A model generated the notes under the pieces. The model was not told the DNA's origin and did not search any database. It worked only from the letters and a program-made list of their open reading frames with translations. A DNA stretch of 64,000 nucleotides from positions 128,001-192,000 of the IMG/VR virus record IMGVR_UViG_3300011226_000001. One strand, given 5' to 3'. The stretch is from a virus. Lineage: Duplodnaviria > Caudoviricetes. Positions 42,785 through 47,176 of this stretch are shown piece after piece (the first letter of the stretch is position 1; every line of letters begins with the position of its first letter). Made by a program: the position numbers and the translations under genes.

Positions 42785-44653
42785 ATGGTGAAAATCAAGC
42801 ATATAGATTTTGACTTCGATCCACCTGAACAGTTTGCCGACCAGCAGACATACGACGGTGTTCGAATACTAAAAGGCGTAAGTAAAAGCGCTAAAGGCGG
42901 TAAAGCACTACTCGTCCTCGATCACATGCCAACCGAAGACTTGCGTAACGGCAAGATATTCAGTAGCACAGAAGGTGAGTTGTTCCTGAATCAGATGCAG
43001 TATCTCGAAGATACGTTTCCGACCAAGACGACTCTCGACGACTGGAACTTCCTTGTTGTCTCGTACAACATGTTCAAGACGTATGACAAGGGCGAGCAGT
43101 TCAAAGAAGACGCAGACCAAGCGTTTGCGGATCGTATTCGTGATTTGATTGTTGAGTACAAGCCAGACTACGTTCTAACATTTGGTAAGGCGCCATTCAA
43201 AGCGCTTAACGCCGACAAGATTCAGTTCTCGAAAGATCACTACGAGCACTGGTATGGTGTGGAGATTCCGACGAAGCTCAAGCACGATGGTAAGAAGCAC
43301 AGCTTTATCCATCTGCCGAACGTCAGCTATCACACCGTATTGAACCCGATGCACATCGCTGGTTCATCGTATACTCTCGGTTACATGGCACGTTGGATGT
43401 TGCCGTGGTTGAACAAAGGGATGCGCTATAAGATCGACGAAGTTACGTGTGGTAAGAAGCGTAACTGGGACCTCGTGTATGTAACGAAGGTCAAGCAACT
43501 TGAGAAAATCTTGAAGCGTATGAAGCGCGCGAAGAAGGTTGCAGTCGATACCGAAACCGAGAACCTGAATCGTATTAAGAATAAAATCTTGACGGTGCAG
43601 CTATCGGATGACGGTAAGAAAGCGTATGTCATTCCAATCTATCACCGCGACAGTCCGTTCAGCCCGAAAGAGTTGCGTAAGGTACGCGAGTTGTTCAAAG
43701 ATTATTTCGAGGACAACGAGAACAAGTATCAGATCTACACCAACGCGAAGTTCGACCTGAACGTAATGCGCTCTAACTTCGGCATTCGTAGTTATGCGGC
43801 AAACGTTTGGGATATTCAGGCGGGTGAGTTCGCGTTCGATGAAAACGCCAAGTCGTTGTTGAACGTGACAGGCAGTGGTTATTACAACTTGGCGAACCTG
43901 ACAATGCAGTTCGGCTGTCAGGTGTACCATGAAGTGTCGTTCGGTAAAGAGATGCGAGCAACGATTGCAGACGTTGACCTCGATGAATCAGTGCAGGAGT
44001 ATGCTGGCCTCGACGTTATCGTACCGTTCCGCATTGCAGAGAAGCAGATGCTTCGAGCGAACGATATCAAGTATGGTAAGTATGACTCTATGGTGAGTGA
44101 GCAAATCTCTGACCAGATTCATGCGTTCTCGATTCTTGAGACAACAGGTGCTGGCGCTGATATCGACTACCTGTTTAAGCTCAACCTTCCGAACTCTCCG
44201 ATTAACGAGGAGATTCGAAACGTAGAGCGCGAGTTCATGAACAGCCCAGAAGTTAAGGCTGCGAACAAGGTTATTTGCAAAGACGACAATGTTCCTAAGA
44301 TGGGTCTTATGGGCAAAGTCGAAGTGACCAAGTTCGATATGTCGAAAGCAGAGCATAAACAGATTCTGTTCTTTGACGTGATGAAACTCAAGCCACTGAA
44401 AGAGAGCGAGCAATTACGTGAGAACGGTAAGAAGTCGGGCAAACTCGACAAGGACTTCCAGGAGGCGTATAAGGATGTGCCTCTTGTTGCGTTATATACC
44501 AAACTCGGAAAAGCGTACAAGCTCAAGAACGCCTACGTTAACAGCTTGCTCAAGCTCTGGGGAGAATCAGAAGACTTCAAACACGACCGTTCGATTCGAC
44601 CGACGTATGGCTACCTCGGAGTTGTAACTGGACGTACAAGCGCTAGTGATCCT
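42785..44653 (+). CDS. polA: Family A DNA polymerase, exon 1 (UDG-like N-terminal domain, 3'-5' exonuclease, thumb)
   Basis: ExoI VAVDTET, ExoII NAKFDL, ExoIII YAGLD; ends TGRTSASDP; continues in frame with NLQQVPSR at 45875. Confidence 0.9.
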
Positions 44654-45874
44654 AGATTGGGCTTCATGTAGGAAACTGCATGTCGAAAGCTACCTAAACG
44701 GGGAAGAGCCTTACGCAGCGAATGTGTAAGGAGAACCTACCGTGCTAAATGTCGGAAACGACTAAAAGCCTAACGACTATCCCGCGAGGGAGTAGAGTGA
44801 CAAGCAAATGGTCACGCGAAATGGTAGCGTCCTAAGTTCTCATTTGAGTCTGATATGCAAGCGCGTCAGACGAGAGAATAAGTCTATTCAGAATATTTTC
44901 AGAAATACTTCATTTGGGACTTGTTGACGATAATTAAAATGCGTCACTGACAGCAAGTTCCTTTGAGGCGTATATGAAAAAAGTAAAAACGACCGTGAAG
45001 AAGGGCCGTGCTATTGCACTCGTTGCAGAGCAACATCTTTTGCCTAAATATCTGAAACACTATATTGAGGCTTGGGCGGCGAAATTTCTCCATGATCATC
45101 CAAACGTAAGCACTGCTTATTCGCTAACTGACTTCAAGTGTTGGAAGTCCTATAGAGAAAACATCTTTGTCCATAAGACGGGTGTGTTCTTAATCGTCAA
45201 CGACGAAGGCGAAGTGCGCATGACTGTTGGACGCAAACATCCAAAAGGCTATTTGTCTTTATGGCTGCGTGGTCCTTTGGCGCATAGAGTAGTAGCAACT
45301 GTCTGGAAGAAAAACAAACATCCTGATACAAGACCAATTGTAAACCATCTTGACGGAATCAAGACAAATAACTGTATTGATAACCTTGAGTGGTGCAGCA
45401 ACTCGCGTAACATTCTTCATGCCAGAGAGATGGGTTTAAATGTTTATAACAAACCTACATCTGGTCTAAAGATTGGTGGCCAAAAGAAAGGGACTTCAAA
45501 ATACTTTGGAACCTTTTACGATAAAGCCAAATGTATGTGGGTTGCTCAAGTCAGACACAACAATATTGTGCATGGCCGCCGTCGTTTTCGAAAAGAAGAT
45601 GATGCAGCACTTCACTATAACAATGTGTGTGATATTCTTGGTATAACTGAAAAGCCGCGTAATGACTTTCCGAAGCAGAAGATTCGTCGAGTCAGAATAG
45701 GTAAAGCTGTTATACGAATGATTGGTAAAGATGAACATTTGTTTTTCGTTTCTGAATAGCGGACTTGATATAGTCTCTTCCACATCGGTAAACGGTGTGG
45801 TGGTGTGTAAGACGAGGGATGTTGGTACTCGCATCATCAGAACGTGTGTTGCGAACACGTTTTAAGACCACAAA
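44654..45874 (+). mobile_element. Group I intron (IA2-like) in polA carrying a homing endonuclease in P8
   Basis: 5' exon ends in T; IGS AGATTGGG; P2 CATGTAG/CTGCATG; P3 GCTACC/GGTAGC; P7 GACTA(44775)/TAGTC(45771); P7.1 and P7.2 hairpins; P8 GTCC/GGAC; P9 CCACATCG/CGGTGTGG. Confidence 0.9.
44974..45759 (+). CDS. Intron-encoded HNH homing endonuclease with C-terminal AP2 domain
   Basis: AHRVVA..VNHLDGIKTNN..NLEW; SKYFG...WVAQ...EDDAALHYN; AT-rich. Confidence 0.88.
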   Translation: MKKVKTTVKKGRAIALVAEQHLLPKYLKHYIEAWAAKFLHDHPNVSTAYSLTDFKCWKSYRENIFVHKTGVFLIVNDEGEVRMTVGRKHPKGYLSLWLRGPLAHRVVATVWKKNKHPDTRPIVNHLDGIKTNNCIDNLEWCSNSRNILHAREMGLNVYNKPTSGLKIGGQKKGTSKYFGTFYDKAKCMWVAQVRHNNIVHGRRRFRKEDDAALHYNNVCDILGITEKPRNDFPKQKIRRVRIGKAVIRMIGKDEHLFFVSE

Positions 45875-47176
45875 AATCTCCAGCAGGTGCCCTCACGTAG
45901 TGAGATGGGTAAACTGATCAAACGTATTCTGATTGCGCGTAAGAATCGCCTGCTTATCAAGGTCGACTACTCAGCGCACGAAGTTCGTGGTTGGTCAATC
46001 ATCTCCGGTGACCAGGGTGTTGCAGACGTATTCGAACAGGGTCGTGCGTTGCGTCATCGCTATCGTACTGTACCAGACCCGTGGATCTGGCATCGCGTCG
46101 AAGCAGAAGGTGACGTTCACAAAATCAACGCCGCATACTTCTTCGGCATTCCAAACGTAATGGATGTAACCAAGTCCGTGCGTAACGCGGTTAAGACAGT
46201 TATCTTCGGTTTGATTTATCAGCAGGGCGATAAAGGTCTTGCGAAGTCTACAGGCCGTGAAGTGTCTGAGATTGCAGAAATCAAAGCCAAGTTCCTTAAA
46301 CGATTCCCTGTTGGCTTAAAATGGTTCGACAAGATTAAGAAGTTTGCACATGAGAACTTCTTTGTTGAATCGCCTGTTGGTCGTCGTCGTCATCTTTGGG
46401 GCTTGATGCTGCCTGAGTCGCACAAAGAAGCGAACATGGTACATGCTGCGTGTGATCGTCGTGCAGTAAACAGTCCAGTACAGGGCTTCGGTTCTGACTT
46501 GATGATGTCCGCGATTCGTATTCTGGATCGCATGAAGTACGATTACTGGAAAGCGAACGGCGAGTACCCTGACTTTGATATGAACGTATCGGTACACGAC
46601 TCCTTAACCGTTGACTGTGATTACAAGTGGATCTTCCTTGCACTTGATATGATCGAACGCGCTATGACAAGCGCTGTGGTTGAGAAAGTACAGAAGCGTC
46701 ATCCGGGGTTTGAGTTCACGTCCGTGCCTGAGATCGACTTTGAAATTGGTGCGTCTGAAAAAGACGTTGGCGGTTGGGACTTCTCTTATGTTGGTCTGCG
46801 TAAACTTATCCAGAAGGGTCTGGAGATTAAACGCGACGAGCTTAACGAACCTGACCTCGACGTTGAGAAGACAACTGACTCCATCATGGAAGATCAGTAT
46901 CACCTCATGTCTGATTGGATGAAGAAACAACTGTGGGCGAATGGCATTAAGATTCGCAGCATGGATAAAGTTAATCCTCTCACCAACAAAGACAAGAAGA
47001 ACGTCGAAGAATGGCTCAAAGAACTTCCGAAGAACGTTAAGAAGTTCGAAGCATACGAAGCAGAGGAAGCGAAGAAGAAAGCCGCTGCCGCTGCTGGTGG
47101 TGCAAAAGGCCAGAAGAAAATCAAAATCAGCAAGTCCATGCTTAAAATGGCACTTAAGGGGATTGCGAAGAAATGA
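45875..47176 (+). CDS. polA: Family A DNA polymerase, exon 2 (palm/fingers)
   Basis: NLQQVP, motif A DYSAHEVR, motif B RNAVKTVIFGLIY, NSPVQG, motif C VHDS; spliced product about 1056 aa. Confidence 0.9.
   Translation, partial: NLQQVPSRSEMGKLIKRILIARKNRLLIKVDYSAHEVRGWSIISGDQGVADVFEQGRALRHRYRTVPDPWIWHRVEAEGDVHKINAAYFFGIPNVMDVTKSVRNAVKTVIFGLIYQQGDKGLAKSTGREVSEIAEIKAKFLKRFPVGLKWFDKIKKFAHENFFVESPVGRRRHLWGLMLPESHKEANMVHAACDRRAVNSPVQGFGSDLMMSAIRILDRMKYDYWKANGEYPDFDMNVSVHDSLTVDCDYKWIFLALDMIERAMTSAVVEKVQKRHPGFEFTSVPEIDFEIGASEKDVGGWDFSYVGLRKLIQKGLEIKRDELNEPDLDVEKTTDSIMEDQYHLMSDWMKKQLWANGIKIRSMDKVNPLTNKDKKNVEEWLKELPKNVKKFEAYEAEEAKKKAAAAAGGAKGQKKIKISKSMLKMALKGIAKK

Follow-up and report, generated by a model that had tools for sequence, protein, structure and literature searches.

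An adenosine-ending group IA2 intron within a phage's DNA polymerase gene

The interrupted polymerase gene

The window analysed here is a stretch of 64,000 nucleotides (nt), positions 128,001 to 192,000 of the virus record IMGVR_UViG_3300011226_000001 (Duplodnaviria; Caudoviricetes). The source is a complete 268-kb virus record with terminal repeats, and its closest GenBank relatives are jumbo phages of Erwinia and Dickeya, genus Alexandravirus. The gene for the family-A DNA polymerase (polA) is split in the window into two open reading frames (ORFs), the first (42785-44671) encoding the 3'-5' exonuclease domain together with the beginning of the polymerase domain, and the second (45887-47176) what remains of the latter. 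Between them lies a predicted group I intron whose last nucleotide is adenosine (omega-A). A terminal guanosine (omega-G) is near-universal in group I introns but not strictly defining; it is seen as a fixed need, in that it replaces the exogenous guanosine in the P7 pocket for exon ligation. We consider it likely that this intron, a mobile td-like element of subgroup IA2, has lost its terminal G and is still removed precisely between A45874 and A45875. That this junction is used in vivo, and how the A would be accommodated, we infer from the sequence.

Exon 1, which is collinear with intronless homologues, matches the Pfam families DNA_pol_A_exo1 (E 9e-17) and DNA_pol_A at positions 34-128, and exon 2 matches DNA_pol_A at positions 132-361 (E 1e-37). 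The gene is uninterrupted in about 40 related Alexandravirus phages, and the 1.2-kb insert recurs in polA of one phage in GenBank, pEa_SNUABM_40; its annotation gives the split gene as three separate coding sequences (CDSs), all of them hypothetical proteins. The coordinates of the features are given in table 1.

Table 1. Features of the interrupted polA gene in the window, with the thyA intron of the same genome
Feature	Coordinates	Strand	Description
polA exon 1	42785..44653	+	3'-5' exonuclease domain and N-terminal polymerase part; ends ...TSASDP
Group IA2 intron (predicted)	44654..45874	+	1221 nt, last nucleotide A45874 (omega-A); separates the P codon from the N codon in the DPNLQ motif
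Guide AGATTGGG	44654-44661	+	identical in the omega-G sister L043
P1 region	44651..44661	+	C44651-G44661, C44652-G44660, U44653.G44659 (CCU/GGG)
P2	44662-44689	+	GAAA loop
P3 5' strand, then J3/4	44690-94	+	standard pairs; region 44662..44762
P4	44698-703 with 44737-43	+	standard pairs
P5	44709-14 with 44726-31	+	compensatory changes against L043
P6	44751-62	+	standard pairs
P7 5' strand GACUA	44775..44779	+	pairs with UAGUC 45771-75; identical in about 30 omega-G relatives
P7.1, linker, P7.2, P3 3' strand	44781..44828	+	44781-90; AGUAGA; 44797-815; 44823-27
P8 and 928-nt loop	44829..45764	+	GUCC 44829-32 with GGAC 45761-64; U-A is G-C in L043 (compensatory)
HNH homing-endonuclease ORF (predicted)	44974..45759	+	261 aa, in the P8 loop; PHROG 59 HNH endonuclease, E 1e-23
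J8/7 UUGAUA and P7 3' strand UAGUC	45765..45775	+	identical to those of omega-G relatives
J7/9 UCUU, P9, P9.1, P9.2	45776..45863	+	same architecture in about 20 distinct relatives
3' tail AAGACCACAAA	45864..45874	+	ends in omega-A; sister introns have ...AAUAAAG or ...CACAUGG before the junction
polA exon 2	45875..47176	+	starts NLQQVPSRSE; first 5 nt AAUCU are the P10 strand
thyA IA2 intron	L040:1438-2646, ~G000:C1:20199-21407	-	outside the window; own endonuclease-type ORF; RF00028 weak, 18 bits

The splice junction and its terminal base

The intronless homologues of pEa_SNUABM_1 and Dickeya AD1 read ...SASDP NLQQVPSRSE across the insertion site (TSASDPNLQQVPSRSE; SASDPNLQQVPSRSE; ...GRTSASDPNLQQVPSRSEMGK), and the window encodes TSASDP through T44653 and NLQQVPSRSE from A45875. 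Every in-frame, stop-free pair of splice sites was enumerated for 5' sites within 44625-44671 and 3' sites within 45835-45911 (below, a caret marks the junction). The conserved sequence is restored by only two of them, 44653^45875 (CCT^AAT) and the one-base shift 44654^45876 (CCTA^AT), and under both the last intron base is an A (A45874, or A45875 with the shift). The terminal guanosine expected of a group I intron is therefore absent. None of the G-terminated pairs restores DPNLQQ; each inserts, deletes or substitutes residues in the motif or next to it. The nearest G upstream of the 3' site is at 45866, and those downstream are at 45883, 45886, 45887 and 45889. The initial annotation had placed the 3' splice site after A45874, with restoration of SDPNLQQ, and had noted a frameshift from G45866 and loss of NLQ or NLQQ from G45883 and G45886; homologues and enumeration bear out the placement.

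An intron at the same polA codon provides a reference for the two splice sites. This 323-nt, ORF-less sister lies on a 214-kb contig of an uncultured phage (L043; IMGVR_UViG_3300024308_000188). Its guide AGAUUGGG and its exon context CCU^AAUCUCCAG are those of the window, and it follows both canonical rules, with U at position -1 and G at omega. Because it shares with the window the guide, P1 and the first bases of exon 2, and obeys both rules, it fixes the homologous splice sites in the window. It also bears on the idea that a true G acts as omega at a cryptic site (G45866, G45883 or G45886), at the cost of a small insertion or deletion in the polymerase, or in the extreme form that splicing at G45866 is followed by a -1 slip on the A-run. 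In-frame, G-ended options do exist, such as 44659^45884, which would give SASDPRLQVPSR, and 44654^45867, which would give DPNHKNLQQ. Every such option alters the conserved DPNLQQ, several need a 5' site that does not follow a U or that lies inside the guide, and P10 complementarity is missing, as 45875-79 is the only partner of the guide AGAUU; in the omega-G sister, whose guide is the same, the canonical junction is the one used. After enumeration, both the cryptic junctions and the A-run slip were judged implausible, and we regard a cryptic G as very unlikely.

The initial annotation had left room for a sequence error in the A-run, that is, an assembly or sequencing artefact hiding a true G at 45874. 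The homopolymer context (A5) would favour such an error, but a G-to-A call is not an error of homopolymer length, and the 3' end ...GACCACAAA^AATCTCC (in RNA, ...UUAAGACCACAAA^AAUCUCC) is shared without change by three independent assemblies, namely the window record, the cultured isolate pEa_SNUABM_40 (MZ443780), and IMGVR 3300031370_000001 with its source metagenome contig. With three genomes in agreement an error is excluded, to the extent that assemblies can tell. The comparison with homologous introns in related phages that had been proposed as a check thus gave two more omega-A genomes and, in the same-site omega-G sister with the identical guide, support for the junction.

The relatives also give the direction of the change. 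L043 and an insert-bearing intron at the same site (L044/L047, IMGVR_UViG_3300033997_000243) end in G (...UUAAGAAAGAAUAAAG^AAUCUCCAGCAA), as does the polA intron at the same codon of Pseudomonas phage CRC2 (...GAACACAUGG^AACCUACAG). Some 20 further distinct family members from viral contigs have a GAAYA...G tail that, by eye, seemingly ends in G. The genome of the window itself has a second IA2 intron, in thyA. It has the canonical omega-G, and U at position -1; the 5' splice site reads ...AUGCGU^UCGUUACAUUAAGCGCC (exon side AUGCGU, intron UCGUUAC...) and the 3' end ...GGUGAACACCAAG^UCAAACGAU (...CACCAAG before the junction). As the same-site introns of CRC2, L043 and L044/L047 and the thyA intron all end in G, the comparison indicates that omega-A is a derived loss of the terminal guanosine. 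The ancestor would have been a G-ending intron at the same polA site. Most simply, an ...AAAG^AAU... end would have lost its G by deletion, leaving a run of five A; L043 AAAG^AAU minus its G gives exactly the five-A run of the window. Scans of viral and metagenome contigs with P9.2-tail patterns returned only duplicates of known loci and no intermediate tail variants.

In the L044/L047 intron (L044, 9700-10499, on a 319-kb record), an L043-type intron carries an extra ORF-bearing insert after P5. The insert opens with its own GUGAUAUAGUCU-like piece, and the 3' end has the same omega-G as L043; the insert may be a nested or duplicated element.

Ribozyme fold, selection and mobility

All helices from P1 to P10 can be drawn with standard pairs only. 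The U.G wobble at the 5' splice site is present (U44653.G44659), and P10, formed by AGAUU 44654-58 with AAUCU 45875-45879, has five pairs of five and is contiguous with P1, in agreement with the earlier observation that the guide pairs perfectly with the ligated exons. The G-C pair of P7 that binds guanosine (G44775-C45775), likewise described as intact on first reading, lies in GACTA 44775-79 / TAGTC 45771-75. P9 is at 45780-800, P9.1 is formed by 45802-05 with 45832-35 and 45813-16 with 45828-31, and P9.2 at 45839-63 carries the family loop motif UUGCGA. Compensatory changes relative to L043 occur in P5, P7.1, P7.2, P8, P9 and P9.2, and about 30 relatives have exactly the same R and S elements (AACGACUA / GAUAUAGUC). 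By blastn the intron core is similar to td-type phage introns.

No group I match came from Rfam, whether the whole window was scanned at the gathering threshold or the intron by itself at E <= 10; this is due to the 928-nt P8 loop and not to an absent fold. L043 matches RF00028 over the full model (30.6 bits, E 6.8e-6; below the gathering threshold of 50 bits), and its Rfam alignment gives the same helices for the P2-P6 region. The signature of subgroup IA2 is the presence of P7.1 and P7.2 between P7 and the 3' strand of P3, joined by a G-U-A-containing linker (PMC3428280). The polA insert has P7.1 and P7.2, which are an insertion in the RF00028 model, a GUA-containing linker (AGUAGA) and the P9.1/P9.2 extensions, and is on this basis assigned as a td-like group IA2 intron. 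Inside the P8 loop, GGACTTGTTGA at 44917-44927 echoes the true P8'/J8/7 sequence GGACTTGATA at 45761-70; this may be a scar of ORF insertion, an alternative pairing, or chance.

Both exons are under strong purifying selection, with dN/dS of 0.06-0.10 at dS of 0.5-0.8 among the three omega-A phages, and a search of the genome found no DNA polymerase family other than polA, in keeping with the initial view of an omega-A ribozyme in a presumably essential gene. Exon 2 has ten codons before its first ATG (45905), and four of them differ among the three phages, all synonymously (CAG/CAA, GTG/GTA, CCC/CCG, TCA/TCG/TCT). At 45887 the window has GTG where the other two genomes have GTA, so that no start codon is available there. 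Since this stretch changes only synonymously and has no start codon of its own, the NLQQ frame upstream of the first ATG appears to be translated, and splicing would therefore be required. Compared with pEa_SNUABM_40, the ribozyme of the window has 1 difference in 207 positions of its 5' part and 3 in 115 of its 3' part, against 80% identity for the intron ORF and 87-89% for the exons. Three different phages carry the A-ending intron; their genomes are apparently complete, and one of them has been isolated. Together these comparisons argue that gene and ribozyme are under continued selection.

The same data weigh on the proposal that splicing is no longer completed and that the polymerase is made as two assembling polypeptides, as in other phage polymerases split by insertions. 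The product of exon 1 would then end ...DPRLGFM at the stop that it meets six codons into the intron, and the product of exon 2 would begin at an internal start. Three separate CDSs are annotated in pEa_SNUABM_40, and loss of omega-G is expected to cripple the second step of splicing, both of which would fit. Such a split would delete the invariant NLQ motif, and it leaves unexplained why the NLQQVPSRSE codons before ATG 45905 change only synonymously, with GTG45887 replaced by GTA in two phages; nor would there be a point in keeping a non-splicing ribozyme so much better conserved than the sequence around it. We therefore think this proposal very unlikely, and precise removal of the intron remains our preferred reading.

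The predicted product of the intron ORF has the motif VNHLDG...NN...NLEW...N..H and matches Pfam HNH_3 (E 2e-4, 21.4 bits, under the cut-off of 24.8 bits); together with the PHROG match it is predicted to be an I-HmuI-like HNH homing endonuclease. It shares 41% amino acid identity with the ORF of the CRC2 intron and differs from that of pEa_SNUABM_40 at 75 codons synonymously and 46 non-synonymously. The introns of pEa_SNUABM_40 and IMGVR 3300031370_000001 are nearly identical, including the homing endonuclease gene (HEG; some 16 differences over 800 nt), although the genomes are about 10% apart. This indicates an intron still moving by homing, and recently so. The HEG of the window (compared over 44904-45753) is 17-20% different from both, with the flanking ribozyme almost identical. 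A divergent HEG inside a near-identical ribozyme suggests either that HEG cassettes have been exchanged or that constraint on the two parts is very unequal.

Homing has seemingly marked the exons as well. The flanks of the intron (44636-44653 and 45875-45883) are heavily recoded relative to intronless Alexandraviruses, with about a dozen synonymous codon differences around the insertion site, including serine switches from TCT to AGC/AGT. Upstream, ACT TCT GCG TCT GAC CCG has become ACA AGC GCT AGT GAT CCT, and downstream AAC TTG CAA has become AAT CTC CAG. Such differences usually betray co-conversion during homing, and the recoded flanks are best read as a co-conversion tract from a distant donor. 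The recoding itself creates the P10 complementarity, and it probably protects the site from the endonuclease.

Probable exon ligation without omega-G and its significance

The first step of splicing would most likely be canonical, with exogenous guanosine attacking after U44653 of the U.G pair in P1; in the second, the 5' exon would attack the phosphate 3' of A45874. The 3' site would be positioned by the 5-bp P10, a 2-bp P9.0 and perhaps a lineage-specific helix of UGGU 45801-04 with ACCA 45867-70, which would end 3-4 nt before the 3' splice site. The terminal A would fit an unchanged G pocket poorly, and exon ligation may be slower or dependent on a chaperone. The omega-G relatives also have exactly the same sequence in the remainder of P7, in J8/7, in the R element and in P1 and P10, and the comparison thus shows no compensating change in the catalytic core. 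Two candidates for compensation were rejected: an A for U in J6/7 (UAAAAG), which recurs in several omega-G relatives, and a strengthened P10, as L043 has the same guide and exon bases.

The differences from the omega-G sister near the 3' splice site lie in J7/9, P9 and the tail. There, ACCA(C) 45867-71 can pair with UGGU 45801-04, a helix isoenergetic with the competing P9.1a pairing of the family. A P9.0 of TT45778-79 with AA45872-73 had been proposed at the outset; the pairing can form in the window (UU:AA), but it has just 2 bp and lacks support from L043, in whose alignment it is not conserved. We hypothesize that the tail helix and the pairing of UU 45778-79 with AA 45872-73 make up an extended P9.0-like clamp that flanks P9 and ends at the splice site.

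Several observations weigh against splicing at A45874. Mutagenesis of the Tetrahymena intron reportedly implies that an omega-A should strongly impair exon ligation, and neither G44775-C45775 nor the sequence around it departs from that of omega-G relatives. Neither P9.0 nor the tail helix has covariation support. The near-total identity of the ribozyme, loops included, exceeds what purifying selection usually leaves; it may stem partly from recent horizontal spread or exchange of the HEG cassette, in which case the argument from long persistence is weaker.

Splicing at the A site may also depend on a protein helper, such as a host RNA chaperone, a phage factor or the HNH protein of the intron, the RNA alone being unable to ligate the exons. 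This is a sub-case of the preferred explanation and not its opposite, and we regard it as possible, though not the likelier course. The unchanged G pocket argues that the RNA alone would bind A poorly. Nevertheless, no candidate helper was identified, to our knowledge HNH endonucleases do not act as maturases, and one intron without omega-G, in Coxiella, self-splices, going by the title of Raghavan et al. 2007.

Among phages, family-A polymerase genes interrupted by IA2 introns that carry HNH endonucleases are well known, from SPO1, PhiI/W31, phiL7 and Pf-WMP3 (PMC3428280, PMC3984707). The introns of T4 td, SPO1 gene 31, PhiI/W31 and Pf-WMP3 (I-PfoP3I), found in DNA polymerase or td/nrd genes, resemble the polA intron in being IA2 with an endonuclease (HNH or GIY-YIG) in a peripheral loop (PMC3428280, PMC3984707), and those in phage polymerases also in their insertion in a highly conserved family-A motif. 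Unlike it, the described phage IA2 introns end in G, and their polymerase sites are three others (PMC3428280). The introns of L043, L044/L047 and CRC2 (OR687458, Schitoviridae) share with the window the codon boundary between P and N of DPNLQ and the IA2 core. L043 is identical in guide, P1-P4, P7, J8/7 and P10 exon context, and differs in having no ORF and ending in G. In the N4-like phage CRC2 (L004:2490-3315), the homologous HNH ORF lies in the P6 loop, not in P8, and the intron ends in G. The same endonuclease family thus occupies different loops (P6, P8) of one ribozyme lineage. These three sister introns are unannotated in their records, and we found no published description of them.

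Natural introns without omega-G have been described elsewhere. The ND5-717 intron of hexacoral mitochondria has omega-A, and its exons are perfectly ligated in vivo (PMC8146996, PMC6545197). It resembles the polA intron in being an obligatory intron of an essential protein gene with a large P8 insertion; in contrast, it is mitochondrial and belongs to another subgroup, holds host genes and not a HEG, is fixed and non-mobile, and can be giant and back-spliced. In Coxiella burnetii, one of two self-splicing 23S rRNA introns lacks omega-G, according to the title of Raghavan et al. 2007 (J Bacteriol 189:6572; listed in PMC5423948). This intron, Cbu.L1917, is like that of the window a group I intron of the bacterial world without omega-G, called self-splicing in that title; unlike it, it is an rRNA intron, and the two Coxiella 23S introns are IB2 and IA3, not IA2 (PMC10136302). 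These published precedents lower the surprise of the polA case. In the papers searched we found no description of an intron that ends in A, whether from a phage DNA polymerase gene or from subgroup IA2, and no mention of an intron in Alexandravirus polA.

The natural exceptions to omega-G are very few and belong to awkward systems, an obligate intracellular pathogen and coral mitochondria. The polA case offers the best-understood class of phage ribozyme (IA2), an unchanged core, G-ending sisters with the same site and guide, and a cultured carrier in Erwinia phage pEa_SNUABM_40, and for these reasons makes ligation without omega-G directly testable. It also carries a warning for annotation, as the split polA is labelled as hypothetical proteins, three in number, and the junction would be put in the wrong place by any intron finder that insists on a terminal G. 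Rather doubtful, in our estimate, is the stronger claim that an omega-A td-type IA2 ribozyme with an ordinary G pocket ligates its exons efficiently without protein help. If it is true, omega-G would be dispensable for the second step in IA2 introns when P10, P9.0 and a tail helix hold the site, and omega-A might even be favoured, for example by suppressing hydrolysis at the 3' splice site and circularisation, or by throttling expression of the polymerase. In that event the two natural introns that share a guide, one omega-A and the other omega-G, would offer a ready-made system in which to dissect the dispensability of omega-G.

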